This document shows positions 3,754-64,000 of a DNA stretch of 64,000 nucleotides, piece after piece. The stretch is taken from assembly GCA_963747695.1 (NCBI GenBank), contig CAVVFV010000010.1, forward strand, positions 325,618-389,617. The letters run 5' to 3'. Under the pieces are notes generated by a model that was given only the letters and a program-made list of their open reading frames with translations, was not told the origin of the DNA and did not search any database. A program made the position numbers and the translations under genes. Numbering within the stretch: the stretch's first letter is position 1; the number at the start of each line of letters is the position of its first letter. Origin of the DNA: Candidatus Falkowbacteria bacterium. Lineage in GTDB: Bacteria > Patescibacteriota > Patescibacteriia > Patescibacteriales > WJLG01.

Positions 3754-4191
3754 CTATTTTATTTCGACCATTCTTCTTTCTTTCCCGAGGTGCGCAATTT
3801 TGATCGTTTTTTTCCTCTTCGTTAATGACCCTTTTACTTTCTCCGGCCACTCGATCAAACAGACCGAATCTTGATCGCCAAGATAATCCCCGGCGCCGAT
3901 CGCGGCTAAGTCGCGGGCGGATTTCAGGCGATAGGCATCGATGTGACAGAGGTGTTTGATGGTCGGATTGTTTTTTACCGGATAGATTTTCATCAAGACG
4001 AAAGTCGGACTGTTGATATTACGCTTGATGCCCAGCCCCAAAGCAAAGCCGCGGGCAAAGACAGTTTTTCCCGCGCCCAAGTCTCCGGACAAAGTATAGA
4101 CCTCGCCGCCTAGAGCACGCTTGGCCATGGTTTTGGCCAGCGCAATCGTTTCTTTTTCCGAATGAGTAATTTTTTTCATTTTATGTTTCAC
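3754..4191 (-). CDS. tsaE: tRNA t6A37 biosynthesis ATPase TsaE
   Basis: GDLGAGKTVFARGFA Walker A plus SPTFVLMKIY, the TsaE/YjeE signature. Confidence 0.85.
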   Translation of the reverse strand: MKHKMKKITHSEKETIALAKTMAKRALGGEVYTLSGDLGAGKTVFARGFALGLGIKRNINSPTFVLMKIYPVKNNPTIKHLCHIDAYRLKSARDLAAIGAGDYLGDQDSVCLIEWPEKVKGSLTKRKKTIKIAHLGKERRMVEIK

Positions 4192-5881
4192 CTAAAATTC
4201 TGATGATCGAGCAGAATGGTCTAATGGCTTTTAAAGCCGCTTCGATTTTTTTATCCTTGGGCAATCCCTGCAATTCGACGAAAAAATAATAGTCCCAGGC
4301 TTCCGCAGCCGTCGCTTTGGAATGAAGCTTGGTCAGGTTGATATTCCGCTGGGCAAATTCGTTAAGGATGTCGCGCAGGATGCCGGGACGGTCATAAACC
4401 GCCAAGAGCAGCAGGGTTTTATCCGCGCCCAATTTCTCGGACAATTGCGGGGAATCTTTTTTGGCAATGATGTAAAACTGGGTGAGATTATTTTTTTTGT
4501 CTTCGATATTTTCAAACAAAATTTCCAAGTGATATTTTTCGGCCGCGATCCGGCTGCCGATAAAAGCGACACTGGGGTCGTTACTGGAAAGGATCGCCTG
4601 CACGGTGCTGGACTCGACTTCCAGTTTTGCGGCGGGAAAATTCTGATCAAGCCAATTCCGCGCCTGGGCCAATGGCTGGGCATGCGACTTGACCACTTTG
4701 ATCTGTCGGGCATCTTTGGTCCGCGCCAAAAAATACAAATGCACCGGTAATTCATAAGAACCGACGATCCGCAGCGGATGCCGGACCAGATTGTCCATGG
4801 TTTCCTGGATCACTCCTTCGGTCGAATTTTCCGCCGGCACAATGCCGAAAATCGCTTCGTCATTGGTTACGGCGCTAAAAACTTCAGTGATGGTCGAGCA
4901 AGGCATTTCTTCGGTCGCGCCGGGAAAAACATCGCGCGCCGCTTGATGCGAAAAGGTTCCTTCCGGACCCAAATAGGCGATTTTCCCTCGCAAATTATCC
5001 AATTTGATCGTGCCGGCATTTTTTTTCAATTCCACCGGCTGGCGATCGAGCAAGGCGATCAATTCCACCGCCTTAGCCTGCGCGATGGGAATAAAACTCT
5101 CCATCGCCGCCGCGGTTTCGGCGAAACCGGCGACAAAACCGGTCCGGTCTTTTTTCGCCAACTGCTTGATAATTTTTTTCGCTTCGCCCAAAAATTCTTC
5201 GGTCAAAGCGGCAAAAAAAGGATTGGCCATTTCCAGATCGGCATATAGTTCGGGATTGCCGCCTAAAACTCGACCGGCCACGACGCTCTGCAACCGGAAA
5301 ACCGGCGTGGAAAAAACATTGAGCAGTTCAAAATCCTGTTTCTGGATCGTCCGCGCAAAAATTATATTGATAAAATGAGTAAAGGCTTGAACCACGGCCA
5401 TCTGCCGGTCATGATCAGCCGGCGAGCTATAAATTAGTTTTGCTCCGTTATCTTTAAAAAGTTTGGCCAAATATTTTGTCCACTGATTATCCCGGCCGGA
5501 GCAGAAAACTATCACCTGCTTTTCCAGATTCGACACCAGCGGACCGAAGAGGGGATGCATCCCGGTCACGCCGCAGTCCGATTTGGTTTTCATCATTTCG
5601 GCCATTGGCAATTCTTTGAGCGAGGTTAAATCGCAAAGCAAGGCCGCGGGGCGGACTTCGTCGCGGATTTCCCTAATCACTGCCGTGACGGCCGGGATCG
5701 GCACGCAGATAATGACGATATCGCATTTTTTCGCCAACTGTTTGGGAGTCAATTCGGTTTTCCTGCCCGACACTAAAACTTCGAGTCCTACACCCGCAAA
5801 AAAACTCTTGAACCAGCCGCCTAAACGGCCATTGCCGCCGATAATTCCGATCAGCGGTTTTTTATGATCGATTTTTTTCAT
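4181..5881 (-). CDS. Fused prephenate dehydrogenase (TyrA-like N-half) / prephenate dehydratase with ACT domain (PheA-like C-half)
   Basis: N-half has IGIIGGNGRLGG (Rossmann), GMHPLFGP and PADHDRQMAVVQAFTHF. C-half has KIAYLGPEGTFSHQAA, PAENSTEG and an ACT-like LLLAVYDRPGILRDILNEF. Confidence 0.85.
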   Translation of the reverse strand: MKKIDHKKPLIGIIGGNGRLGGWFKSFFAGVGLEVLVSGRKTELTPKQLAKKCDIVIICVPIPAVTAVIREIRDEVRPAALLCDLTSLKELPMAEMMKTKSDCGVTGMHPLFGPLVSNLEKQVIVFCSGRDNQWTKYLAKLFKDNGAKLIYSSPADHDRQMAVVQAFTHFINIIFARTIQKQDFELLNVFSTPVFRLQSVVAGRVLGGNPELYADLEMANPFFAALTEEFLGEAKKIIKQLAKKDRTGFVAGFAETAAAMESFIPIAQAKAVELIALLDRQPVELKKNAGTIKLDNLRGKIAYLGPEGTFSHQAARDVFPGATEEMPCSTITEVFSAVTNDEAIFGIVPAENSTEGVIQETMDNLVRHPLRIVGSYELPVHLYFLARTKDARQIKVVKSHAQPLAQARNWLDQNFPAAKLEVESSTVQAILSSNDPSVAFIGSRIAAEKYHLEILFENIEDKKNNLTQFYIIAKKDSPQLSEKLGADKTLLLLAVYDRPGILRDILNEFAQRNINLTKLHSKATAAEAWDYYFFVELQGLPKDKKIEAALKAIRPFCSIIRILGET

Positions 5882-6895: not shown

Positions 6896-6940
6896 GGACT
6901 CGCCAGTGGATGAACCCCCGGCGCCCGGTCGGACTTGCCC
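6896..6940 (-). repeat. tRNA-associated double-hairpin element, copy A (5'-truncated, degenerate)
   Basis: Minus-sense gtccgaccgggcgccgggggttcatccactggcgagtcc matches copies at 23224-23270 and 55761-55806. It is flanked by gggcaa (6886-6891) and ttgccc (6935-6940). Confidence 0.6.
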
Positions 6941-6960
6941 CGCCCCATTTACGTTTTTTG

Positions 6961-7034
6961 TGGATCCAGTAGGATTTGAACCTACGACCTCCTCGGTGTA
7001 AACGAGGCGCTCTAACCAGCTGAGCTATAGATCC
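6961..7034 (-). tRNA. tRNA-Val (anticodon TAC)
   Basis: Hand-folded cloverleaf: GGATCTA/TGGATCC acceptor, GCTC-AGCTGGTTA-GAGC D arm, CCTCG-TTTACAC-CGAGG anticodon arm, GTAGG-TTCAAAT-CCTAC T arm. 74 nt, no encoded CCA. Confidence 0.9.
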
Positions 7035-23047: not shown

Positions 23048-23092
23048 CTCAAATTTAAAACAGCCCCGAATAGGGGCTGTTTTAAATTTGAG
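23048..23092. terminator. Bidirectional terminator shared by tRNA-Asp and unit U2
   Basis: Perfect hairpin ctcaaatttaaaacagcccc-gaat-aggggctgttttaaatttgag abutting the tRNA-Asp 3' end. Confidence 0.75.
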
Positions 23093-23166
23093 CGGAGTGG
23101 ACGGGACTCGAACCCGCGACCTCTTCCGTGACAGGGAAGCGTTCTAACCAACTGAACTACCACTCC
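23093..23166 (-). tRNA. tRNA-Asp (anticodon GTC)
   Basis: GGAGTGG/CCACTCC acceptor, CTTCC-CTGTCAC-GGAAG anticodon arm, GCGGG-TTCGAGT-CCCGT T arm. 74 nt. Confidence 0.9.
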
Positions 23167-23223: not shown

Positions 23224-23283
23224 GGCCTCGCCAGGGGATGAACCCCTGGCGCCCGGTCGGATGACCGGGCGAACTACCACTCC
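23224..23283 (-). repeat. Double-hairpin element copy B fused to an exact 13-nt copy of the tRNA-Asp 5' end
   Basis: Minus-sense GGAGTGGTAGTTC (23283-23271, identical to 23166-23154) followed by gcccggtcatccgaccgggcgccaggggttcatcccctggcgaggcc. Confidence 0.75.
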
Positions 23284-23506
23284 AATTATCAGATGAACTA
23301 CCTTATTATATCATCTAAAAACAAAAAACGAAATTGCTTTCGCTTTCTTAAGGAAAAGAATATCAATAACGGCGATAACAGTCAAGGCCGTTCTTGGTTA
23401 ATTAGTCAATTAGTTAATTAGTTGAAAAAATCGGGCGTGTCGCGCCTTATCGCACTTCTTGACGCCTTGCGACTAATTAACTAATCAACTAATTTACCAA
23501 TTTCTT

Positions 23507-23537
23507 TTATCCACCTCTTATCAACACCTTATGAACA
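23507..23537 (+). promoter_or_regulatory. Three phased DnaA-box-like 9-mers upstream of dnaA
   Basis: ttatccacc (23507), ttatcaaca (23518) and ttatgaaca (23529), spaced exactly 11 nt apart. Compare the consensus TTATCCACA. Confidence 0.65.
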
Positions 23538-23672
23538 TTTACAGCCTACTTAAATATTCCATCCTCTGATATACTGATTACTTGCTGCGGCAGATTATTT
23601 CTGCGCCGCTATTGCAAAATTATTTTACTTATCCTAAGATATAAAATCAGCTTTAAAAAACTCTTTGCTTCT

Positions 23673-25046
23673 ATGAATAACGAGCAAATTTGGCAAGCGG
23701 CCTTGGGCGAGATTGAATTGAATTTGTCCAAAGCAAACTTCACCACGTGGTTTAAGAATACTTTTGTTTCTTCTTTTGAAGACGGCCGGGCGATCCTCTG
23801 CGTCCCTAATGCTTTTACCAAGTCGTGGTTAGAAACAAAATATCACAAAGAAATCGCCAGCGCGCTCGAGCATGTCGTAAATCTAAAAATCAAAGAAATA
23901 CTTTACAAAGTGGAGTTGAAGAAAGCTGCGGCTGGTGCCGGCCTCCTGGAAAAAATCCATCTCAAAAAGAAAAAAGAAAACAGTGAAAGCAATGAAATAG
24001 TTTCCTCGGCCAATCGCTTCGGACTCAATCCTAAATATACTTTTGAAGCTTTTGTCGTCGGGCGCGGGAACGAACTGGCCCATGCCGCTTGCCAGGCGGT
24101 GGCCAATAACCCCGGCCGCGTTTATAATCCGTTATTCATTTACGGCGGCGTCGGTCTGGGAAAAACTCATCTCCTGCAGGCCATCGGCAATGAAATAGCC
24201 AAACGGACCAACAAGGTTCTTTATACCACCAGCGAAAACTTCACCAACGACTATGTCAACTCGGTCCGCTCGGGCAAGGCCAAGGACTTCAAAGACCGTT
24301 ATCGCAATGTCGATCTCTTATTAATCGATGATGTGCAATTCATGGGCGGCAAAGACGGAACTCAACAAGAATTCTTCCACACCTTCAACGAACTGCAGCA
24401 AGCCGACAAACAAATAATTCTCACTTCCGACAAACCGCCGAAATTGATTCCGGCGCTCGAGGCGCGGCTGGCTTCGCGTTTCGAATCAGGAATGGTAGCC
24501 GATATCGGCCAACCGGACGTGGAAACCAAAGTGGCCATCTTGGAAAGAAAGGCGCGGGAAAAAAATTATCTCCTTGATACTGAAATCCTTCATTACGTCG
24601 CGGCAAATATTAAAAATAATATCCGCGAGCTGGAAGGCGCATTAAACAAAATCGTCGCTTATCATGAATTCAATAACACCGCGCCGACTTTAAAAACCGT
24701 CAAAAGCATCCTTAACGACTTAATCGTTTCCACCCAGGCCCGCTCGATCTCACCCCGGGATATTATGGAAGCCGTCTGCCGCTTCTATAGCATTGAAAAC
24801 AAAGATTTGATCGGCAAGGGCCGTAAAAAAGAGCTGGTCTGGCCGCGCCAAATTTCTATTTATTTGATGCGCAAGGAAATCAATTACTCCTACCCGACGA
24901 TCGGCAATGAGTTGGGCGGCCGGGATCACACCACGGCCATGCATGCTTATAATAAAATCCTCGACGAAGTTGAAACCAAGGAAAACGAAAAAGTAATTCA
25001 GGAAATCGAATCGATCAAGCAAATCCTTTACAGCTCCCCTTTGTGA
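23673..25046 (+). CDS. dnaA: Chromosomal replication initiator DnaA
   Basis: GGVGLGKTHLLQAIGN, LLIDDVQFMGGK and C-terminal HTTAMHAYNKI. 457 aa. Confidence 0.95.
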   Translation: MNNEQIWQAALGEIELNLSKANFTTWFKNTFVSSFEDGRAILCVPNAFTKSWLETKYHKEIASALEHVVNLKIKEILYKVELKKAAAGAGLLEKIHLKKKKENSESNEIVSSANRFGLNPKYTFEAFVVGRGNELAHAACQAVANNPGRVYNPLFIYGGVGLGKTHLLQAIGNEIAKRTNKVLYTTSENFTNDYVNSVRSGKAKDFKDRYRNVDLLLIDDVQFMGGKDGTQQEFFHTFNELQQADKQIILTSDKPPKLIPALEARLASRFESGMVADIGQPDVETKVAILERKAREKNYLLDTEILHYVAANIKNNIRELEGALNKIVAYHEFNNTAPTLKTVKSILNDLIVSTQARSISPRDIMEAVCRFYSIENKDLIGKGRKKELVWPRQISIYLMRKEINYSYPTIGNELGGRDHTTAMHAYNKILDEVETKENEKVIQEIESIKQILYSSPL

Positions 25047-49525: not shown

Positions 49526-49903
49526 GTGAGCGATACCATCGAAAAGGCAGAGCTAGCCGGCCTGAGTGATTTGCTCATCAGCGATCAGCTCGTGGTGGAC
49601 GTTGCCGGCAAGAAGCTGTTCGTTTTTGTAAATCGCCAGAAGGAAACCGGCCTACGGAAACTTGTGGTGGACGTTGCCAGCAAGAAGCTGCTCGTTTCAG
49701 CAAATCATAAGAAAAAATCCGGTCTGCAGAAAAACGCCGAACATTCTGCCGCCTATCGCCTTTTTTTTGGCGAGCGGGAGACATCGCCCGGAGAAGCAAT
49801 GTTGATCTTTTGGCATTACTATGCTTTGGAAACCAGCCATTACATCACTGAAAACGGCACTTTTACCCTCCTGGTCGGCCAAGGTCGTCCTCGCCTGAAT
49901 TGA
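49526..49903 (+). CDS. Hypothetical protein with a 24-aa tandem repeat (GTG start)
   Basis: SD aaggagg 6 nt before the GTG. DNA repeat of period 72 nt (49592 and 49664) encodes VVDVAGKKLFVFVNRQKETGLRKL and VVDVASKKLLVSANHKKKSGLQKN. Confidence 0.55.
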   Translation: MSDTIEKAELAGLSDLLISDQLVVDVAGKKLFVFVNRQKETGLRKLVVDVASKKLLVSANHKKKSGLQKNAEHSAAYRLFFGERETSPGEAMLIFWHYYALETSHYITENGTFTLLVGQGRPRLN

Positions 49904-55143: not shown

Positions 55144-55193
55144 AAGGTATTTTTTTGTATTTTTTTTGCTAAAAAAATACAAAAAAATACCTT
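55144..55193. terminator. 50-nt perfect palindrome, bidirectional terminator after ssrA
   Basis: aaggtatttttttgtatttttttt-gc-taaaaaaatacaaaaaaatacctt. Confidence 0.75.
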
Positions 55194-55200
55194 GCTGAAT

Positions 55201-55365
55201 GGTGCGGGAATTGAACTGGTCAGGAGCGAGGCAATGGCCGCGAGGGAACGAGCGGCCGGCAGCCGAGCGTCCGCCAAGCATTCGGGGAATGCTTGGCGCT
55301 GACCCTGGACGAGGGAACGAGCCGCTTTCCGGCGGCGAGTGACCGAGCAACGGTACCCAGACATG
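55201..55365 (-). repeat. GC-rich T-loop-ended unit U3
   Basis: Minus-sense catgtctggg...gtccagggtcagcgcc[hairpin]...ctcgctcctgaccagttcaattcccgcacc. Paralogous to U2 and U4. Confidence 0.7.
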
Positions 55366-55400
55366 TTTTTTTAAAAAGTTTTACCATTTTATTTGCAGAT

Positions 55401-55571
55401 TGCCGCGGCGGGAATTGAACTGGTAGCGAGCGAGATATGAGGTGAGGCGGAAGCCGAGTCGAATAATCGAGCGACGCCGGACGCGACCCAAGGGAGCGTT
55501 TGGCGGCAACTCTGGACGAAGGAGCGAGGCGGAATTCCGCCGCCGAGCGACTGAGACGGCAGTTCAGATGG
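55401..55571 (-). repeat. GC-rich T-loop-ended unit U4
   Basis: Minus-sense ccatctgaac...gtccagagttgccgcc...ctcgctcgctaccagttcaattcccgccgcggca. Confidence 0.7.
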
Positions 55572-55629
55572 ATAGTTTTATACTTTTAGTTTTTTAGTGT
55601 AAAATGTATACATTATTAAATGTTAAGTT

Positions 55630-55713
55630 GGTCCAGTGGCGGAACTGGTATACGCGCAGCACTTAAAATGCTGTGTCCGCGAGGGCATGTGGGTTCGAGT
55701 CCCACCTGGACCA
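55630..55713 (+). tRNA. tRNA-Leu (anticodon TAA)
   Basis: GGTCCAG/CTGGACC acceptor, CAGCA-CTTAAAA-TGCTG anticodon arm, variable arm TGTCCGCGAGGGCAT, GTGGG-TTCGAGT-CCCAC T arm. 84 nt. Confidence 0.9.
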
Positions 55714-55751
55714 CAGGTAATTTTTTGCGAAGTTTTTTAAACCTTTGCAAT

Positions 55752-55817
55752 AAGGGTTCGCCCGGTCATCCGACCGGGCGCCCGGGGTTCATCCCCGGGC
55801 GAGTCCCTCCCGGACCA
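55752..55817 (+). repeat. Diverged copy of the tRNA-Leu 3' end with double-hairpin element copy C inside the T-loop
   Basis: aagggttcg[cccggtcatccgaccggg cg cccggggttcatccccggg]cgagtccctcccggacca, compared with the genuine 3' end gtgggttcgagtcccacctggacca 40-100 nt upstream. Confidence 0.75.
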
Positions 55818-55905: not shown

Positions 55906-57264
55906 TTAACTTTTCATTTTTAATTGAATTTTGCGGGTATCGTATACCGGTATTATGCCACCTTGCCATGGTGGAGAAACGGGTCCAATTCCCGTTACCC
56001 GCTCACTAATCATACAAGCCTCTTTTTTAGGAATTTTTTTTAACGCGAAGCGCAGCTCCACGTAAGGTTTAATGGGCACAAATTTAAGTTTTCCGGTTTT
56101 TAAAAACAAGTTCGAGCCGCAAATTTTACGCAACGAAGATTTTTTGGAGGATAAGTCGCCAGTTTTCACTGTTTCATCCAATAAAACTGCATCTTTTATC
56201 CAATTTTGGAGAGGTTCGAGCCAAGCGACAACCCCCTTGTTTAAGCTGGCCATTTTTTCCTCTAAATCCCTCTTCTGTAAGACAAGCTTTCTCTTTTCTG
56301 CCCGATAAACCTCGCGGTCGATATCTTGCTCCAAAAGGGCATCAAGAAGGACACGGAGCTTGTTGGAAATGGCCGCTATCTCCGCTTTGATCGCTTGGCT
56401 CTCCGTGCCTGACGATTGGAGTGCCTCTTTTTCATCCTTTTCCGCCATCTTCAATAATTCTGTGGCGCAATCGGCAGGCAAAATGAACTCTTTTAGGATA
56501 TCCGGCAATTGGCCGGTTAAATCATCTTCTTTGACGCAGGGTTGGGAACAGGTCCCTCTTTTTTTTGTACAACGGTAATAAGCGTAGCGATGAACATTAC
56601 CGTTCTTTTGATGCTTAATTTTAACTTCTCCGGTTATGGCGCAACCGCACTCATCGCACCGGATAAGCCCGCAAAAAACTTTTGGCTCACCCTTTGGATT
56701 TTTAGGCGGTTTGCCACGCTCATTTAATACTTTTTGAACTTTATCAAAAAGCTGTTTGGATATAATCGGCGTATGTTTGCCTTCGTGAAGCTCTCCGTCA
56801 TAGCGAAACAAGCCGAAATAGAAAGTGTTGGTTAAAATATACGTCACGCGGTCGCGCGATATGGTTTTGCCAGATCTGGTATGGATGCCGCGCTCGGCCA
56901 AAAATTTCGCTACGTCCTCAAGGCGGGTGTCGCCATTGGCGTAATACTCAAACGCTTCGCGAACGGCTTTCGCGATTTTTTTGTCGACGACAATCGTCTT
57001 GTATCTCCGGTCGTTGAAATAGCCGACGGGCGCGCGCGAAGGATATTCGCCGTTTTTAACTTTTTCATTAAGGCCGCGCCTGGTGTTTGTGCTTAGGTCG
57101 ATAATAAACTGGTTGGCCATGCCAAACTCGACGCTCATCAGCAGAATATTGTCCGTCGAGCGATAACTGCGGTCGTGGGTTTGGATGTGCTGGATTATCC
57201 CCCGCTGGAGAAACCAGCTAATTTGCCCGCCGTCGACGGGTATAATGGTCCAGGAATCCTGCAC
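55906..57264 (-). pseudogene. Large serine recombinase, 5'-truncated by the IS element
   Basis: Recombinase domain (PVGYFND...ILTNTFYFGLFRY), zinc ribbon (CGLIRCDECGCAI...YYRCTKK) and coiled-coil are present. The N-terminal catalytic-Ser region is missing, and the reading frame abuts the IS left end. Confidence 0.75.
55933..56003 (+). tRNA. tRNA-Gly (anticodon GCC)-like, non-canonical T-loop
   Basis: GCGGGTA/TACCCGC acceptor, CCACC-TTGCCAT-GGTGG anticodon arm, ACGGG-TCCAATT-CCCGT T arm (C where U55 is expected), weak 3-bp D stem. It lies antisense inside the 3' end of the recombinase ORF. Confidence 0.6.
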
Positions 57265-57314: not shown

Positions 57315-57653
57315 ATGAGTAAACAAAACAAAGTATCCAAAGAAGAGAAAGCTAAGATCGTTCTAACCGTCCTGCGGGGCGAAAAGACTGTCAGCGAGAT
57401 TGCGGCGCAATACAGTGTTCATCCCAACCTGATAACCCGCTGGAAACAGACAGCCACCGAAAGCATGGCCGAGCTGTTTGAAGACAAGCGCAATAAGATT
57501 GAAAAAGACAAGTTTCAAGAGCAAGAACAACTGGTAGACAGGCTGTATAAATTGGTTGGCCAGCGAGACATTGAGCTCGACTGGCTCAAAAAAAAATTAT
57601 CAATCTTTGACGATGATCGACCGGCTAAAATTGGTCGACCGAGAAAATCCTGA
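57315..57653 (+). CDS. IS3-family transposase OrfA (HTH)
   Basis: KEEKAKIVLTVLRGEKTVSEIAAQYSVHPNLITRWKQ followed by a leucine-zipper-like region. Confidence 0.85.
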   Translation: MSKQNKVSKEEKAKIVLTVLRGEKTVSEIAAQYSVHPNLITRWKQTATESMAELFEDKRNKIEKDKFQEQEQLVDRLYKLVGQRDIELDWLKKKLSIFDDDRPAKIGRPRKS

Positions 57654-58521
57654 TATCACTCTGACCCGCCAGACTGAATTGCTGGACATCTCCCGCTCCC
57701 GCCTGTATTACCAGACCGAAGTCAGCGAGAGGGATCTGCTCATTATGAATCTGATTGATGAAATATATACGGAAAATCCAAGCTACGGCAAGAGGACGAT
57801 AGCGGCCATTATCAGGCGCGACCATAAAATTCCGGTTGGTAAAAAACATGTCCGGACGCTAATGATCAAGATGGGTATTACGGCGATATATCCGAAGAAA
57901 AAGAGGGATTTGAGCCAGCCGGACAAACAGCATAAAATTTATCCGTATCTGCTCCGCGGACTATCAATCACCAGGTCGAATCAGGTTTGGAGCACGGATA
58001 TCACCTACATCAGATTAGAACACGGCTTCTGCTATTTAACGGCTATCATCGATTGGCATTCGCGCTATGTCATTGCCTGGGAATTGTCTAACACATTAGA
58101 TATCGATTTTTGCTTGCGAGTTCAAGAGCGAGCCTATGCCTTGGCAATCCCTGAGATTTTCAACTCTGATCAGGGCAGCCATTTTACCAGTCCGAAATTC
58201 ACCGCCGCCAGTCTGGAAAAAGGCGTCAAAATCAGCATGGACGGCAAAGGCCGCTGTTTGGACAATATCTTCATTGAGCGATTGTGGCGGACAGTTAAAC
58301 AGCAGGATGTTTACATCAAGCACTACGAATCGGTGGCTGAATGCCGAGCCGGCTTAACGAAATTTTTTGACAGCTACAACAATTACCGTCCGCATCAGTC
58401 GCTCAACTACCTTACTCCCGCCGAAGCCTATTTCGGCCAAAACAAAAAAACTGCCTTTACAGAGCAGCTTAATATACCAAGCTTTAATTTAAATGCCGTC
58501 CTGACCAACCCAACTATTTAA
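57556..58521 (+). CDS. IS3-family transposase OrfB (DDE integrase core)
   Basis: WSTDITYI (D), NSDQGSHFTS (D), IERLWRTVKQQ (E). Presumably expressed as an OrfAB fusion across the A9 run at 57588-57596. Confidence 0.85.
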   Translation: MASETLSSTGSKKNYQSLTMIDRLKLVDRENPDITLTRQTELLDISRSRLYYQTEVSERDLLIMNLIDEIYTENPSYGKRTIAAIIRRDHKIPVGKKHVRTLMIKMGITAIYPKKKRDLSQPDKQHKIYPYLLRGLSITRSNQVWSTDITYIRLEHGFCYLTAIIDWHSRYVIAWELSNTLDIDFCLRVQERAYALAIPEIFNSDQGSHFTSPKFTAASLEKGVKISMDGKGRCLDNIFIERLWRTVKQQDVYIKHYESVAECRAGLTKFFDSYNNYRPHQSLNYLTPAEAYFGQNKKTAFTEQLNIPSFNLNAVLTNPTI

Positions 58522-58542
58522 TCTCAAAATATTGTGTTGACA

Positions 58543-58794
58543 AACTGGACCACTATAGTTACCCATGTAGATGGATCGGCAAGGGTACAAACTGTAAATA
58601 AGATGCAGAATCCCAGGTTGTACAGCCTCATTAGTGAATTCGAAAAAATCACTGGAATTCCAATTATTCTTAATACCTCTTTTAATGTAAATGGCGAGCC
58701 CATTGTTGAATCTCCGGAAGATGCTATAAAATGTTTTATGGGAACGAATATTGATGTGCTGGTGATTGGAAATTATATTATAAACAAGAAATAA
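58543..58794 (+). pseudogene. C-terminal remnant of a NodU/CmcH-type carbamoyltransferase
   Basis: THVDGSARVQTV...NTSFNVNGEPIVESPEDAIKCF matches only the last ~85 residues of that family. It starts at the IS right end. Confidence 0.7.
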
Positions 58795-58840
58795 TTTTGC
58801 AGACAAAATTTTTTTAAAAGATTTGTAAAAATAAAACAAT

Positions 58841-60334
58841 ATGAAGCAGTCTAAAAGGAGTGCAATTAGTCAAAAATTGATAAGGTTTACCGAAGGGGCA
58901 TTTTTTGAGTATGTTTTGCCAAGAATAGAAGAAAAATACCCAGCCACTATTGGAAAATTTTTTGTTATCTTAACTTCATCTGTCGCTTATGGTATTGCGG
59001 ATAAGTATTCCGATTTAGATATTTTTATTATTTTTCCAGAGCATAAGGATTATTTAAAATATCATAGAAAAATGCAGAGCCTGATTGACTCAATAGAATA
59101 TCCGGCCAATTATTATGATATTTGTGATAAGGGGATTAGATTTGAATTTGAAAGTTTTCTTAAGTCAGACATACTCAATATTGTAAAAAATCAGTCAGAC
59201 AATAATTGGCTGAACCAAACAGAGTGGTTGCTATGCTGGTTCATCAACTCAGTGGCTATTTATGATCCTATAGAAGTCTTCGCAAACACTAAAAAGAAAT
59301 TACTATTTTTTCCTAAAAAAATAGTTGAAATTAAAGCAAATAATAGTTTAATTTCTTTATTAAAATATAGGCAAATCCTGTCATTAACTAAAGATAAATA
59401 CGTATTCGATGTTTATTACTTTAAGTCATTGAAGAAAATCATGGATTTAATATTTTGGAGTGAGGAAATGTTTGTCCCTCATCCAAAGTGGTCTTTCTAT
59501 TTGTCTAGATATGTAAGCAGTCTTGGTAGGCAATTTTATAAAAGTGCGTCCGTGGTGCTGGATAATAATGAAAAAAACAAGGTTTTGTTTATTGAAAAAT
59601 GGATAAATATCATAGTTAGTAGATGTGGTAAAAAGCTTTGTATGGATGAAAGATTGATAAAATATATTGCTAACGAATATAGGTATGATGTAAGGAAAAA
59701 ATATCCAACCGATAGGAATTTTTATTTTAAAAATTATTTAGAGCCAATAAAAAAAATAGATCTAGTATTTGCGTATCTTGATAAAGAAAGACTGGATAAA
59801 CAATATTATTTGATTGAAGAAATCGGATTGAATTATAAAGGGAGGATGAATTATGATAAATTATTGCGTAGGCAAGATAAATATCTATTGCATCATAATG
59901 ACGACTATCTCTTGGTCGGTGATGATATATTTAAAAAAGTGATTTTGTATTTAGTGTTTATAATATGGAGAAAAATAAGAGTTGCTACGAAAGCGCCCCT
60001 GCGAAAGAATTTTTTTAATCAGCAGTGGTATAATTTACAGGTTCTTGAGCATTTCATTGAATTTATAGCTAGGTTAGAAAAAAGAGCTTTTGTGCATGAA
60101 AATAAGCAGCTGGATTTTTTGAGGTCAGACAGAAAATTTAAAAAGGTTGCAGATTTGCTGCTAAGAACTCTTGAATTATCTCAGGACGAGAAAATTAAAA
60201 TTTATTGGGAGTGCTATAATAATCTGACGAAATATATTTTGGAAAATAACATACTAACTGAATTTCAGGTTAAAAATCCATTAGTTATTCAGTTTGATAT
60301 TGAATATTGGAAATATGAGAATTTGAGACTTTAA
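58841..60334 (+). CDS. Nucleotidyltransferase-fold (Pol-beta superfamily) protein, function unknown
   Basis: ILTSSVAYGIADKYSDLDIFIIF resembles the GS-x(n)-D-x-D minimal NTase motif. 497 aa, very AT-rich. Confidence 0.55.
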   Translation: MKQSKRSAISQKLIRFTEGAFFEYVLPRIEEKYPATIGKFFVILTSSVAYGIADKYSDLDIFIIFPEHKDYLKYHRKMQSLIDSIEYPANYYDICDKGIRFEFESFLKSDILNIVKNQSDNNWLNQTEWLLCWFINSVAIYDPIEVFANTKKKLLFFPKKIVEIKANNSLISLLKYRQILSLTKDKYVFDVYYFKSLKKIMDLIFWSEEMFVPHPKWSFYLSRYVSSLGRQFYKSASVVLDNNEKNKVLFIEKWINIIVSRCGKKLCMDERLIKYIANEYRYDVRKKYPTDRNFYFKNYLEPIKKIDLVFAYLDKERLDKQYYLIEEIGLNYKGRMNYDKLLRRQDKYLLHHNDDYLLVGDDIFKKVILYLVFIIWRKIRVATKAPLRKNFFNQQWYNLQVLEHFIEFIARLEKRAFVHENKQLDFLRSDRKFKKVADLLLRTLELSQDEKIKIYWECYNNLTKYILENNILTEFQVKNPLVIQFDIEYWKYENLRL

Positions 60335-60362
60335 TTTGGGGCAAACGATCAATTATTGAAAA

Positions 60363-60392
60363 AGGCCATTACGAGAGATCTCGTAATGGCCT
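60363..60392. terminator. Bidirectional terminator
   Basis: aggccattacgaga-gatc-tcgtaatggcct between the convergent NTase-like gene and serS. Confidence 0.75.
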
Positions 60393-60397
60393 TTCAG

Positions 60398-61612
60398 CTA
60401 TTTCTTTGTTATTACCTCCTTGCCATTTATGAATGGCCTGAGTGCTTCAGGAATGATTACATTCCCATCAGCGGTTTGGTTGTTTTCGAGGATGGCCAGT
60501 AGTACGCGGTCAGTTATCATGGTTGCGGAAATGGTGTGTGGGAAGAAGTTTTTCTCGCCCTTGACCCTGATTTTCAGCCTCCTTGTTTGAAAATCGAGAA
60601 GATTGGTATTGGAGTGTGTTTCCCGATACCCACCATAGCCAGCGAACCAGGCCTCTATGTCGTACTTTTTGTATCCCGGAGCGCCCATATCTCCCACACA
60701 AACATTTACCACGCGATAAGGAACTTCCAGGAGTTGCATGATACGCTCCTCATTCGCTAGGCAAATTTCATGAAACTTGGGAGAGTCATCGGGGTGGCAG
60801 AGTATAATCTGCTCCGTTTTGTGAAACTGGTGTACTCTGAATGCGCCCTTGGTTGCCTTGCCATAGGAACCAGCTTCGGTTCGAAAGCACGGCGTAAGCG
60901 CACAATACTTCAGTGGCAGGATCGCCTTGTCAAGAATCTCGTCCATATGGAAAGATACAAGTGTTTGCTCGGATGTTCCGATCAGGCTCGTATCTGTGTC
61001 AGAGATTCCGTAAAATTGATCCTTTGAGAACGGCAGGTAGCCCGTACCAAACAGGGTTTCCTTTTTTGCAACGATTGGGGTTAACATCAGGGTAAAACCT
61101 TGATTCAGCAGCATTTGCTGGGCAAGCTGAAAGATTGCCATAGCCAGGACAGCTCCGTCGCCGACCCAGTAATAAAAACCTGCGCCTGCCACTTTGCTCC
61201 CTCTGGCCAAATCAAGTATGCCGAGATTGACTCCGATAGTTTCGTGAGTTTGAGGTTTAAAGTCGAAATTTGGAACCTGTCCCCACTTTTTGATTTCGAC
61301 GTTATCAGCGTCGCTTTCTCCATCCGGGACATCCTCAGCAAGAATATTGGGCAGTTGCCTCCACATCTCGATTCGTTCCGCCTCGAGTTTTCCCGTGATC
61401 TCCTTCAGAATCCTGATTTCTCCTTTCAGGGAGTTATCAGCATTCTTGCCCAAAACTTTCCTTTGATGCTGTAATTCCTCCAGTTTTACCTTGTTCTTCT
61501 GAAGTTCGGTGTCTATTTCGAGTAGCTTATAGACATCAATCTCCATCTTGCGCCGCCTACAGATCTCGGCAATTAATGCCGGATCTCTTCTTAACAGTCC
61601 AAAGTCTATCAT
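60398..61612 (-). CDS. serS: Seryl-tRNA synthetase
   Basis: N-terminal coiled-coil arm, class II motif 2 FRTEAGSYGKATKGAFRVHQFHKTE, motif 3 region TISATMITDRVLLAILENNQ. 404 aa. Confidence 0.9.
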   Translation of the reverse strand: MIDFGLLRRDPALIAEICRRRKMEIDVYKLLEIDTELQKNKVKLEELQHQRKVLGKNADNSLKGEIRILKEITGKLEAERIEMWRQLPNILAEDVPDGESDADNVEIKKWGQVPNFDFKPQTHETIGVNLGILDLARGSKVAGAGFYYWVGDGAVLAMAIFQLAQQMLLNQGFTLMLTPIVAKKETLFGTGYLPFSKDQFYGISDTDTSLIGTSEQTLVSFHMDEILDKAILPLKYCALTPCFRTEAGSYGKATKGAFRVHQFHKTEQIILCHPDDSPKFHEICLANEERIMQLLEVPYRVVNVCVGDMGAPGYKKYDIEAWFAGYGGYRETHSNTNLLDFQTRRLKIRVKGEKNFFPHTISATMITDRVLLAILENNQTADGNVIIPEALRPFINGKEVITKK

Positions 61613-61799
61613 GGTACACCTCCTTAGGGTTTTAGTTGTAAAGGTTCAGGCCTCACTGACTTTGTATTATACTCCCAAAGACCAAATTTGTCAAGCACAG
61701 GCACGGCACGCTCAGTGCGCGTAGTGTTTGAGTCAAAATGCTTGATTTTATTATACATTTGTGATAACTTTATAAAATAATACAATTGGTTAACATATT

Positions 61800-62942
61800 A
61801 TGGCAAAAGACACAATAAAAAAGGGAAAGCTTAATAATCTGATTGATATTATGCAGAAAAAGGGAGGTAATGAGAGGGAAAGAGAGGATGAGGTAGCTAC
61901 TTTCCTGAAAAACGTTCCGAGAGTCCCTCATGATGAGATGATTCAAGATAAGATGGATTTTCCAACAAAGATTGTTTTCGATGTGAACTCGGCATGCAAT
62001 CTGCAATGTAAAATGTGCTACGTGAAAGGGAGAAATAATACCCAAGTTCCATATGGTGATTTTACTCGCATTTTAAGGGAAATAAAAAACAATAACTCCC
62101 GGGCTATACTTAGTTATAGTTCGCTTGAGCCATTCATGAGAAAGGATTTTTTGAAAATAACAAAAAAGACCCATGAGTTAGGAATTCCATTTTCCATTTT
62201 TACAAATGGAACATTGATTGATAAAAAAATAGCAAAGCTATTGGTGGAATATAATCCAATTTCAATCACGTTTTCTTTGCATGGGCTAAAAGACACACAC
62301 GAGATGATTAATGGGGTTCAAGGAAGTTATGATAAGGTTATTGATGCGATAAAGAATATAAATTATTACAAAAAAATACTTAAGAAAAAATTGCCATTTG
62401 TTAGGGTTAATTGTGTTATTTCATCTCTTAATTATCGAGAATTGCCAGAGTTCGTAAATATTGGCAAAAAGCTAAAATTAAATATGCGCTTCTCTCATTT
62501 AATTTGGGAAGATAAGAAGACACACGATGAAATTTTAAATTTCATAAAGAAAAATCTAAAAACTGACAGTAAAGATATAAGAATTGATTTTAGCAGCCAA
62601 CTCAGCAAAGAAGTTGATGTTAAGGATTTAATAAAAGTTATTAAAACAATAAAGAAGGACAAGGATATACAGTTTCTGCCAAGCCTCAGTGATAAGGATT
62701 TGATTAAGTGGTACACATCGCCAATATTTTTTAAGGAAAAAAAGTGTTTTTATCCATTTGAATCCATAAATATACGGTCTAATGGAGAGGTTCATCCTTG
62801 TGCGTTTATCGATTTTTCTTATGGGAATATCTTTGATAAGAATATAAAAGAAATTTGGAAATCAGACAGGGCTTTATTTTTCAAAAATTTATTGAAAAAG
62901 AACGGTGTTTTGCCACCTTGCAATAAGTGTTGTAAGTTGTAG
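61800..62942 (+). CDS. Radical SAM enzyme with SPASM/twitch-like C-terminal Cys cluster
   Basis: CNLQCKMCY (CxxxCxxC) and C-terminal CFYPFESINIRSNGEVHPC...PPCNKCC. Confidence 0.8.
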   Translation: MAKDTIKKGKLNNLIDIMQKKGGNEREREDEVATFLKNVPRVPHDEMIQDKMDFPTKIVFDVNSACNLQCKMCYVKGRNNTQVPYGDFTRILREIKNNNSRAILSYSSLEPFMRKDFLKITKKTHELGIPFSIFTNGTLIDKKIAKLLVEYNPISITFSLHGLKDTHEMINGVQGSYDKVIDAIKNINYYKKILKKKLPFVRVNCVISSLNYRELPEFVNIGKKLKLNMRFSHLIWEDKKTHDEILNFIKKNLKTDSKDIRIDFSSQLSKEVDVKDLIKVIKTIKKDKDIQFLPSLSDKDLIKWYTSPIFFKEKKCFYPFESINIRSNGEVHPCAFIDFSYGNIFDKNIKEIWKSDRALFFKNLLKKNGVLPPCNKCCKL

Positions 62943-62979
62943 GTGCATTTTATGGAAAAATAATTTTTTAATTCTAAAT

Positions 62980-64000
62980 ATGCAATATAAAGTTTCAAGA
63001 TTCGTAAAGAGCTACGAATTAGGAGGTTATAAATGTCTATATCACACTCTTTTGCAAGAGGTTTTATTCGTGAAAAATAATATTTACGAGAAGGATTTTA
63101 TTGACAAATTGACAAAACAAAATCCCAAACTACTTAGGTTAATGAAGAAACTTAAGTTTGTAATTTCTGATGATGAAGACAATGAGGTACTAAAAAATGT
63201 AGTATTGGAAAAAAAGAAATATGATAGCAACTATTCTCTATTGAGAATTTTAATGACTGACCTCTGCAATCTTAACTGCAAATATTGTAAGGTAGAAAAT
63301 AACATAATAGATAGACACAGCACCACAGTAAGCACAAATGATGTAACTGAAACTCTTAAATTATTTCAAAAAGTTTCACCTAAAAGGAAAAAATTAGTTT
63401 CTATTACGGGTGGTGAACCATTATTATTTCCGGATAAGGTTAAGGAAATAATAGAACTGTGCAAGACTCATCTGGATAATTATTGGATTATATTATTCAC
63501 CAATGCCATATTGGTTAACGCTGACATGGCAAAATATCTAAAAAAGGAAAATGTATCGATTGTCATATCGTTGGATGGCAGCGAAAAAGTTCATAATAAG
63601 TTACGCGTTTTTCATAATGGAGAGGGTAGTTACAGTAAGGTGATGGCGGGATATGAATTGTTGAGAAAGAATAAATGCCGGATTGGGTTTTCTTGCACCG
63701 CAGGAAAACACAATATCGATAATTTAGTTGAAGAAATGATTTTTATAATGAAGCATTTTAAGCCGGATAGTCTTGGTATAAATCCGCTTAAGTATCCTTC
63801 GCATAAGACAACCATTTTTTCTCATTTAACCTCGCCAGTCAAATATGCGCAACAGTTGTTTGAATTATATAAAGAAGCTACAAAAAAGGGTGTTTTTGTG
63901 GAGCAAATATATAGGAAGATTGCGCCTTTTGTAGAAAAAAGATTTAAATATTACGATTGTGGAGCATGTGGAAAAAATATTAATCTGGATGCTAGGGGGA
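62980..64000 (+). CDS. Radical SAM/SPASM maturase-like enzyme with ~95-aa N-terminal extension (3' end beyond the window)
   Basis: Absent from the ORF track because no stop occurs before the edge. My translation is MQYKVSRFVKSYELGGYKCLYHTLLQ...LRILMTDLCNLNCKYCKV...ITGGEPLL...YYDCGACGKNINLDARG. Confidence 0.75.
   Translation, partial: MQYKVSRFVKSYELGGYKCLYHTLLQEVLFVKNNIYEKDFIDKLTKQNPKLLRLMKKLKFVISDDEDNEVLKNVVLEKKKYDSNYSLLRILMTDLCNLNCKYCKVENNIIDRHSTTVSTNDVTETLKLFQKVSPKRKKLVSITGGEPLLFPDKVKEIIELCKTHLDNYWIILFTNAILVNADMAKYLKKENVSIVISLDGSEKVHNKLRVFHNGEGSYSKVMAGYELLRKNKCRIGFSCTAGKHNIDNLVEEMIFIMKHFKPDSLGINPLKYPSHKTTIFSHLTSPVKYAQQLFELYKEATKKGVFVEQIYRKIAPFVEKRFKYYDCGACGKNINLDARG

Follow-up and report, generated by a model that had tools for sequence, protein, structure and literature searches.

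What is the short pair of GC-rich hairpins that interrupts the T loop of a broken tRNA-Leu copy at positions 55752-55817 of the window (the whole stretch of 64,000 nt analysed here), and how is it tied to tRNA genes? The sequence-only reading had described three copies of a two-hairpin motif lodged in a T-loop context, and both the repetition and the context are real; the tie to tRNA also holds in other genomes. The 25-nt core CCGACCGGGCGCCNGGGGTTCATCC occurs three times, at 6908-6932 (minus strand), 23236-23260 (minus strand) and 55770-55794 (plus strand), versus no match in 100 dinucleotide-preserving shuffles (chance expectation 0), so that a chance repeat can be rejected. ARAGORN and Rfam together identify eight t(m)RNA genes in the window, and the three copies, named A, B and C, each lie on the same strand as a tRNA gene at a distance of at most 60 nt. 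The features of the three loci are as follows.

55630..55714, plus strand: intact tRNA-Leu(TAA) gene, type I allele, 39 nt 5' of the stub that holds copy C (ARAGORN; Rfam tRNA, 60.7 bits)
55754..55759, plus strand: tRNA-Leu stub, left half of the split T arm (GGGTTC)
55760..55800, plus strand: copy C, 41-nt insert (sequence; core match; fold of -43 kcal/mol, z = -4.1; covariance model, 83 bits)
55760-55779, plus strand: copy C hairpin 1, G-CCCGGTC-ATCC-GACCGGG-C
55780-55800, plus strand: copy C hairpin 2, G-CCCGGGG-TTCAT-CCCCGGG-C
55801..55817, plus strand: tRNA-Leu stub, right half (GAGTCCCTCCCGGACCA), comprising the T-loop remainder, the T-stem 3' strand, the acceptor 3' strand and the discriminator
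23385-23357, minus strand: promoter-like site 5' of copy B
23271..23283, minus strand: exact 13-nt copy of the tRNA-Asp 5' end (GGAGTGGTAGTTC; 13/13 match), joined to the ancestral promoter and leader
23230..23270, minus strand: copy B, 41-nt insert with an A:T variant pair in hairpin 2 (covariance model, 79.5 bits)
23224..23229, minus strand: copy B right flank, GAGGCC, T-loop-like
23092..23166, minus strand: intact tRNA-Asp(GTC) gene, 57 nt 3' of copy B (ARAGORN, Rfam)
6960..7034, minus strand: intact tRNA-Val(TAC) gene, 26 nt 5' of copy A (ARAGORN, Rfam)
6902..6933, minus strand: copy A, decayed and 5'-truncated (core match; covariance model, 43.8 bits)
6933-6923, minus strand: copy A hairpin 1, of which only the 3' arm is left
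6922-6902, minus strand: copy A hairpin 2, with one wobble and one mismatch
6896..6901, minus strand: copy A right flank, GAGTCC, T-loop-like but not derived from tRNA-Val

Copy C consists of the last ~25 nt of tRNA-Leu, with the T loop opened between its C and its G by 41 nt; the split T loop of a diverged tRNA-Leu(TAA) 3' duplicate can be read directly in the sequence, as had been claimed. The insert is made of two perfect 8-bp GC hairpins, each with the flanking G and C as part of its stem, and it sits within TTCGA, after the C and before the G. The same insert can equally be parsed as 39 nt plus a duplicated CG. A duplicated CG/GTTCG target had been suggested as a check, and CG does border the insert on both sides in all seven full copies, but this pattern is equally that of a 41-nt insertion without duplication. 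The ends of the insert, CCCGG...CCGGG, form terminal inverted repeats in a trivial sense, each half being itself a palindrome.

Fusion to a tRNA fragment, which had been proposed for every copy, is clear for B and C and weakest for A. The right flank of copy B together with the closing C of the insert reads CGAGGCC, one position off the tRNA-Asp T loop CGAGTCC. Copy A carries CGAGTCC next to a tRNA-Val gene whose T loop, TTCAAAT, contains no CG, which indicates that at least the short flank travels with the hairpins. The gggcaa/ttgccc pairing said to close copy A exists, but its fold is no better than that of shuffled sequences (z = -0.6). As dnaA lies at 23673-25046, with the cumulative GC-skew minimum beside it, copy B falls in the region 5' of dnaA.

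The element is very rare elsewhere. A scan of 185,579 species genomes, whose pattern matched the window-type hairpin 1 only, gave two loci (L001 and L002). JGI metagenomes gave ten in one scan. Six of these were rejected as chance matches inside GC-rich coding DNA, which leaves four real loci: L006, L007, L009 and the decayed L012. The well-preserved copies are arranged as follows.

L001: hairpins in the T loop of a mosaic tRNA-Ser 3' fragment, with an intact tRNA-Ser(GGA) just 5'
L002: hairpins in the T loop of a tRNA-Gln copy, with an intact tRNA-Gln about 300 nt 3'
L006: hairpins at the position of window copy C, with an intact tRNA-Leu(TAA), as in the window
L007: hairpins in the anticodon loop of a 5' partial tRNA-Ser(CGA), with an intact tRNA-Ser(CGA) 3'
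L009: hairpins in the anticodon loop of a 5' partial tRNA-Arg(TCG), with an intact tRNA-Arg(TCG)

Window copy C, L002 and L006 are identical over the 47-51 nt aligned, including the 41-nt insert, and L001 has a single difference. L006 comes from a close relative that has the same tmRNA tag. L007 and L009, from a source organism of 59% GC, share a variant, CCCGGGC-ATRAA-GCCCGGG followed by CCGGGGG-TTCAT-CCCCCGG, and the D loop of the L007 stub holds a lone inverted hairpin-2 unit. About nine copies are known in total, and a covariance model built from the eight aligned copies found no more in about 220-250 kb of related DNA; L022 and L023 yielded no additional tRNA loci. The window and L002 organisms, at least, belong to the Patescibacteria: among the nearest relatives of the window's SmpB and DnaA, those with an organism name are labelled Patescibacteria, Parcubacteria or Candidatus Falkowbacteria, and the named relatives of the L002 PyrG belong to the first of these groups. 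The phage and plasmid collections searched by blastn contained no match to the element, and four viral-contig scans yielded one unrelated lone hairpin and nothing else; no circular or excised form of the element and no phage- or plasmid-borne copy was found in these collections.

All well-preserved copies lie in 7-nt arm loops of partial tRNA gene copies, five in T loops and two in anticodon loops. The insert opens the T loop in C, L006, L001 and L002 and the anticodon loop in L007 and L009; B has a T-loop-like right flank. Each of these stubs adjoins an intact gene of the same tRNA kind. The T-loop target proposed from the window therefore stands for five copies, but the two anticodon loops and the lone D-loop unit of L007 show that the site is really the C|G step of a 7-nt arm loop. 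Read in the frame of the element, the flanks are GGTYY-CG ... CG-ARNCC in all copies, which is the T-arm consensus, and the anticodon arms of L007 and L009 happen to look like it. Five kinds of tRNA (Leu, Asp, Ser, Gln and Arg) carry hairpin stubs, and the position relative to the intact gene varies: upstream, downstream and, in L009, in either orientation. The expectation that every copy lies beside a tRNA or tRNA fragment holds for all well-preserved copies but fails for L012, which has no tRNA within 5.7 kb; this decayed copy counts against a mobile element tied to tRNA.

Stubs of 5' type (B, L002, L007 and L009) start exactly at tRNA position +1, and their match to the tRNA stops 7 nt (CG + 5) past the hairpins; the L002 stub equals the real tRNA-Gln over its first 55 nt plus 7 nt past the insert and is unrelated beyond. 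In the window, the 3'-type stub begins 7 nt ahead of the hairpins. A GC-rich hairpin or a structured block is present at the truncated end of all partial tRNA copies found at these loci.

The pairing itself is conserved. Fold z-scores against shuffles range from -4 to -6 for copies B, C, L007 and L009, and 98% of cells are paired on an alignment of eight copies. The compensatory pair noticed between B and C is real, and further copies extend it: this hairpin-2 pair is C:G in four copies, G:C in two, A:T in one and G.T in one. In hairpin 1, T:A is swapped for G:C in the L007/L009 variant. The palindromes are thus maintained by two-sided changes, which fits pairing at the DNA level and at the RNA level alike. 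Rfam 15 gives no match to the element at the gathering threshold or at E <= 1, and a known RNA family is rejected on both. An intrinsic terminator is also rejected: a T run is missing after the hairpins and neither terminator scan calls one at the element, the only terminator-like site being at 55704-55718, overlapping the tRNA-Leu 3' end. Since L001, L002 and B have a broken T stem around the insert, an RNA closed by that stem is rejected. Of the three readings first offered, a MITE-like element targeting T loops and a recombination-site module survive, but part of a tRNA-like RNA is unlikely, since the host is always a truncated copy beside an intact gene and never a functional tRNA.

Comparison of orthologous loci in relatives, suggested as a check on the initial reading, found the hairpins and the stub missing together at all three loci tested. 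At locus C, both are found in the window and L006 and neither in L013, L024 and L015 (SmpB identity of 90%, 80% and 78%, respectively), which have the same order of tmRNA, tRNA-Leu and tRNA-Gly as the window. At locus B, the element is absent from L017 and L018 (DnaA identity of 92%) and from L019 (91%). In L017, the conserved promoter and leader lead directly into tRNA-Asp; in the window, the same promoter is followed by the 13-nt pseudo 5' end, the hairpins, GAGGCC, the 57-nt spacer and the intact tRNA-Asp, which corresponds to an insertion of ~117 bp including a 13-bp repeat of the tRNA start. The third locus, that of L002, has a plain tRNA-Gln in the syntenic L020. Neither a filled and empty pair for one same stub nor a hairpin-free stub at the same site was found among these loci, which counts against simple insertion into a stub already in place.

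Some stubs derive from foreign alleles. Among these relatives there are two alleles of tRNA-Leu(TAA), type I in the window, L006 and L015 and type II in L013 and L024, and the way they are spread does not agree with SmpB identity. In the window, the intact gene is of type I, but the stub beside it has a type II T stem and acceptor strand (AAGGG ... CCCTCCCGGACCACA). Its stem-base A at 55753 pairs with the T of CCCTC as in the L013 and L024 allele, and its tail CCCTCCCGGACCACA is the tRNA-Leu 3' end of these two relatives, unlike that of the window's own gene. The L006 stub is of type I, as is the gene next to it, and the A:T/T:A difference between the window and L006 is due to these two alleles. 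The L009 stub differs from the intact tRNA-Arg by a compensatory change in the D stem (GTTC/GAAC versus GCTC/GAGC), which implies that it descends from another functional tRNA-Arg allele. Two stubs, window C and L009, thus stem from functional tRNA alleles other than that of the adjacent gene. The left and right flanks of the hairpins are of one allele in C, L006 and L009, which places the hairpins inside an arm rather than at the joint of a recombination event. A comparison of the window with L006 shows spacers that cannot be aligned, different stub alleles and an insert that, with its flanks, is identical at 59 of 59 positions. We would read this combination as two separate events at locus C rather than as one inherited copy under selection, although selection is a possible explanation.

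The double hairpin is one of several families of GC-rich hairpins or palindromes in the tRNA-stub loops of these genomes. In L001, a third tRNA-Ser-like fragment, which bounds a restriction-modification island, has its T loop interrupted at the same spot (TTC|...|GAATC) by a different perfect palindrome of 32 nt (4104-4133), and the pair TCCCGCGTAGCGGGA and CCCCGCTTCGCGGGG follows GGTGGCCGA at a D-loop position (about 1092-1122). In the window, two tandem 5' pseudo-tRNAs (7210-7085, minus strand) lie 5' of tRNA-Val, with a palindrome in each D loop. GC-rich blocks of 100-300 nt, termed 'type 2', lie 3' of tRNA-Asp, tmRNA, tRNA-Gly, tRNA-Lys and tRNA-Arg in the window, L006, L009, L017, L019 and L024. 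Their left border is an inverted copy of the T loop and T-stem 3' strand, and their right border is a direct copy of the tRNA 3' end from C56/G57, the same spot as the hairpin insert. Of 21 perfect GC-rich hairpins with stems of 7 bp or longer, 12 are no more than 400 nt away from a t(m)RNA gene, although only 8.9% of the sequence is that close; the count is biased, as the loci were chosen for the element (7 of 16 when the five hairpin-pair hits are left out). Half of the t(m)RNA loci of the window (4/8) are clean.

The element has no coding capacity, and a Pfam scan of the ORFs near the copies and of the island by tRNA-Gly detected neither a consistent neighbouring transposase or recombinase nor a RAYT gene. 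IS91 (target GTTC) and ends of IS200/IS605 type were weighed as candidates; the flank in L007 is GTCTC, not GTTC, and no transposase of the IS91 or IS200/IS605 type was seen among the ORFs near the copies. The inserted segments measure about 100-430 bp and contain no recombinase gene. Their sole ORF, in L002, encodes a 92-aa GIY-YIG protein between the hairpins and the intact tRNA-Gln; found at one of eight loci, it was rejected as a general partner. A large serine recombinase gene by tRNA-Gly in the window was considered unlinked: it is a remnant without catalytic domain, is cut by IS3 and is missing from the element-bearing L006.

The closest analogues in form are found in mitochondria. GC clusters, double-hairpin elements (DHEs) and repetitive hairpin elements are GC-rich single or double hairpins of 30-50 nt in AT-rich non-coding DNA; they vary in presence between strains, duplicate 2 nt of the target (AG in the case of yeast GC42), can be merged or arrayed in tandem and have no known enzyme (PMC4478555, PMC2800124). 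Hairpin elements of Neurospora flank tRNA genes, as far as PMC4478555 and its reference list indicate. The present element likewise combines GC-rich hairpins in AT-rich spacers, a possible 2-nt duplication and a presence and absence pattern, an analogy that implies no homology; unlike them, it is bacterial, sits in tRNA arm loops of partial copies, where they are not reported, has CG in TTCGA as target and is dissimilar in sequence.

Among bacterial elements, REPs/REPINs and MITEs come closest. REP, BIME and REPIN sequences, which are mobilised by RAYT (Y1 HUH) transposases, are short non-coding GC-rich imperfect palindromes, often in inverted pairs; one genome can hold several families, and it is probably in folded single-stranded form that they are processed. 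The double hairpin resembles them in these respects, and hairpin 1 of L009 is close to the reverse complement of hairpin 2, which recalls the inverted pairs of REPs. However, REPs are extragenic, number tens to hundreds of copies, carry a 5' tetranucleotide of GTAG type and show no preference for tRNA loops, whereas the three copies in 64 kb are all at tRNA loci and have CG on both sides of the hairpins instead of a GTAG-type motif. With MITEs such as Correia elements and Rickettsia palindromic elements, it shares a putative non-autonomous nature, terminal inverted symmetry, a possible short target duplication and the ability to sit in genes. MITEs usually measure 100-300 bp and can be traced to a parent IS that encodes a DDE transposase; the element differs by its 41 nt, by the lack of a parent element in the plasmid, phage and viral collections searched and by empty sites that lack the element and the tRNA stub together.

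One reading can be held with about even confidence: the double hairpin may be a tiny, rare, non-coding and non-autonomous DNA element or recombination module that moves horizontally and is specific for tRNA arm loops. From the anatomy, the loop position, the presence and absence pattern, the allele origin of two stubs and the conserved stem pairing that were observed, the following life history can be proposed. The element, 41 nt long or ~53 nt with 5+2-nt flanks, is carried by a few Patescibacteria, and its place is the C|G step in 7-nt arm loops of tRNA-gene sequence with the context GGTYY-CG-ARNCC. It would be mobilized in trans, and the cut would lead either to insertion with a 2-bp CG duplication or to a 2-bp crossover. 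Insertion into a single-copy tRNA gene would be lethal, hence the presence of the element only in truncated copies beside an intact gene. The unit that moves between genomes would probably be the hairpin together with its tRNA stub, since the two come and go together and some stubs are of foreign alleles, and this unit might be joined to the resident gene by recombination in the shared tRNA sequence. With 2 hits among 185,579 species genomes, searched for the window-type hairpin 1, and four metagenome loci judged real, the element is patchy and rare, a pattern that suits a selfish element more than a housekeeping signal.

Two forms of this reading can be distinguished. The one put first is that a MITE- or REP-like unit inserts at the C|G of T-arm-like sequence and persists only in non-functional stubs, for which the lone unit in the L007 D loop and the same-allele flanks of the hairpins argue. 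Such mobility is preferred, with hairpin and stub usually moving as one unit. The lack of a consistent neighbouring transposase or recombinase, the small number of copies known and the failure to find an excised form in the collections searched count against it. As further points against it, the tipping of all partial copies by a hairpin or block, and the end of 5'-type stubs exactly 7 nt past the hairpins, suggest that the hairpins take part in making the stub, as opposed to colonising it later.

The strongest rival, possible though rather unlikely, would make the hairpin pair the conserved attachment-site arm of miniature integrative modules. A site-specific recombinase, either of serine type with a 2-bp CG crossover or one recognising hairpins, would join an arm loop to the hairpins, a spacer or cargo and a tRNA segment, restoring the gene and leaving a tagged stub. 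The arrangement recalls attL and attR: 5' stubs precede the intact gene and 3' stubs follow it, the former running from tRNA +1 to 7 nt past the hairpins (B, L002, L007, L009), the ancestral flank is still attached to the stub, some stubs are of foreign alleles and no hairpin-free stub was seen; both hairpin sides being of one allele in C, L006 and L009, however, the hairpins lie within an arm. Centred on CG, the 40-bp unit forms an imperfect palindrome, as a site for a serine recombinase does, but the single unit in the D loop of L007 has the look of a separate insertion. The GIY-YIG gene of L002 could be the 'cargo', but the inserted DNA lacks a recombinase gene and measures only about 100-430 bp, and the Leu, Asp, Ser, Gln and Arg tRNAs would each need a module of their own. 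Integrases that target tRNA genes reportedly use anticodon-loop and T-loop sublocations. The same sublocations are occupied here, a partial duplicate bounds the insert by an intact tRNA and fragments of foreign alleles occur, as at their attachment sites; unlike these, the segments have no integrase and near-zero cargo, the loop is interrupted by a 41-nt hairpin pair and the joint repeat is 2 nt, against a 7-nt overlap and a long identity block. L001 offers an example of a layout like that of an integrase site: its tRNA-Ser and a tRNA-Ser fragment enclose a restriction-modification island.

A wider proposal, unlikely as it stands, would account for all these structures by one process. In Patescibacteria, structure-directed recombination would cut tRNA genes in their arm loops and join hairpin-tagged tRNA segments from other genomes; hairpin elements would drive the horizontal replacement of tRNA alleles, the old stub being left, marked by a hairpin, beside the new gene. 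The hairpin families, the 'type 2' blocks and the two tRNA-Leu alleles would all be its products.

It is very improbable that the hairpins are instead an RNA or DNA signal useful to the host at tRNA loci, for example a structure for precursor processing or stability, or a decoy tRNA arm. In its favour stand the high stability of the hairpins, the identity of insert and flanks at 59/59 positions between the window and L006 despite saturated spacers, and the location of copy B between a promoter and tRNA-Asp with no terminator, which makes co-transcription probable; but the placement relative to the tRNA is inconsistent, the enclosing T stem is lost in L001, L002 and B, and copy A is in decay. 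Judging from the reference list of PMC4478555, the GC-rich palindromes beside tRNA genes of Neurospora mitochondria were at one time put forward as signals for processing. The extreme rarity of the element among thousands of Patescibacteria genomes and its absence from close relatives at the same loci make a host function unlikely here.

Finally, interrupted or split yet functional tRNA genes are refuted for the copies seen: the element does recall archaeal non-canonical tRNA introns, whose transposition reportedly gives related short inserts at differing loop positions, but all host copies are truncated (the 5' half is missing in C, L006 and L001 and the 3' acceptor strand in B, L002, L007 and L009), none is called a tRNA by ARAGORN or Rfam, an intact gene with the same anticodon adjoins each, the junctions have no bulge-helix-bulge geometry and the organism is a bacterium with tmRNA.

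A literature search of incomplete coverage found no description of hairpin inserts in CPR tRNA-gene fragments, and this putative miniature palindromic mobile DNA, with its unusual and precise target, may be new. Transfer RNA genes are classic landing sites of large mobile elements with their own integrase. The same tRNA loops are used here by a far smaller thing, a gene-less 41-nt pair of hairpins, in hosts that have tiny genomes and single-copy tRNA genes, where the element is tied to a broken duplicate of the gene. In practice, tRNA-like fragments and GC-rich blocks at the tRNA genes of CPR bacteria should be taken as structured and recurrent, not as random debris. If the element or its enzyme recognises the folded DNA of tRNA arms, miniature mobile DNA of bacteria would have a new principle of targeting and the long-unexplained mitochondrial GC clusters a bacterial counterpart, and the element could offer a route for the exchange of tRNA alleles between related CPR lineages.

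Besides the hairpin pair, the 41-nt double-hairpin insert between C and G of TTCGA in partial tRNA genes, other GC-rich hairpins occupy tRNA fragments. Two 5' pseudo-tRNA fragments lie in tandem upstream of tRNA-Val (window 7210-7085, minus strand), and the D loop of each holds a GC-rich palindrome, TCCCGCCACGGCGGGA in one and the 40-nt CCCGCCTCG...CGAGGCGGG in the other. Further hairpin families are hosted by the tRNA-Ser-like fragments (1092-1122, 1290-1330 and 4060-4150) of L001, a locus that also carries the hairpin pair and whose restriction-modification island begins at tRNA-Ser and ends with the fragment at 4060-4150. In these fragments, the pair TCCCGC-N3-GCGGGA / CCCCGC-N3-GCGGGG is found at a D-loop position, short hairpins replace the anticodon arm, and a perfect 32-nt palindrome sits at the same C|G spot of the T loop as the hairpin pair. 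A single 10-bp GC hairpin with a TTCAT loop like that of the hairpin pair was also seen in an intergenic spacer of a viral contig (L016 1862-1890); no tRNA occurs in its vicinity and the likeness is probably a coincidence.

Another kind of GC-rich block (100-300 nt), termed type 2, is located 3' of tRNA and tmRNA genes, both in loci carrying the hairpin pair (window, L006, L009) and in relatives' loci devoid of it (L017, L019, L024):

Type 2 blocks
Window, plus strand: 55204-55340, 55400-55545
Window, minus strand: 23040-22895, 22860-22800
L006: 950-1116, 2059-2221
L009: 6762-6899, 10297-10003
L017: 9515-9400
L019: 5712-5834
L024: 5973-6100

Their left boundary is a copy, in inverted orientation, of the T loop and the 3' strand of the T stem, their core is rich in GAGCGA-like motifs, and their right boundary is a copy, in direct orientation, of the tRNA 3' end from C56/G57 on; for the tRNA-Gly block of L006, this direct repeat runs on until halfway through the terminator. 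The blocks have no match in Rfam.

Downstream of copy C of the hairpin pair lie:

55906-57264, minus strand: large serine recombinase in decay, reduced to its Recombinase and zinc-ribbon domains
57315-58521, plus strand: IS3-type transposase pair, interrupting the recombinase 5' end

The recombinase remnant lacks its catalytic domain and enters tRNA-Gly antisense. The region 58000-64000 is low in GC (31-42%) and carries nucleotidyltransferase and radical-SAM genes. Together these features probably mark an island that integrated at the 3' end of tRNA-Gly. The cumulative GC-skew minimum adjoins dnaA (23673-25046), and the replication origin likely lies at 23290-23670, between dnaA and tRNA-Asp with its copy B. 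In L002, another carrier of the hairpin pair, the last five codons and stop of a GIY-YIG ORF (4953-5231, equal to L021 11936-12214) overlap the 5' end of an intact tRNA-Gln. Separately, ORF 49526-49903 of the window contains two tandem 72-nt repeats (49589-49732, 79% identical).

In relatives, a small 23S_rRNA_IVP (four-helix-bundle) gene separates tmRNA from tRNA-Leu (L006 1184-1520; L013 11034-11411; L015 9476-9859); it is missing from the window, where GC-rich blocks alone are left (~55150-55600). In L025 (1-4438), SmpB, tmRNA, tRNA-Leu and tRNA-Gly are duplicated as a perfect inverted copy, most likely an assembly artefact. Close relatives carry two strongly differing tRNA-Leu(TAA) alleles (type I: window 55630-55714, L015 9896-9980; type II: L013 11427-11511, L024 6149-6233). 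As their distribution contradicts SmpB similarity, it implies either horizontal replacement of the tRNA gene or a long-lived polymorphism.
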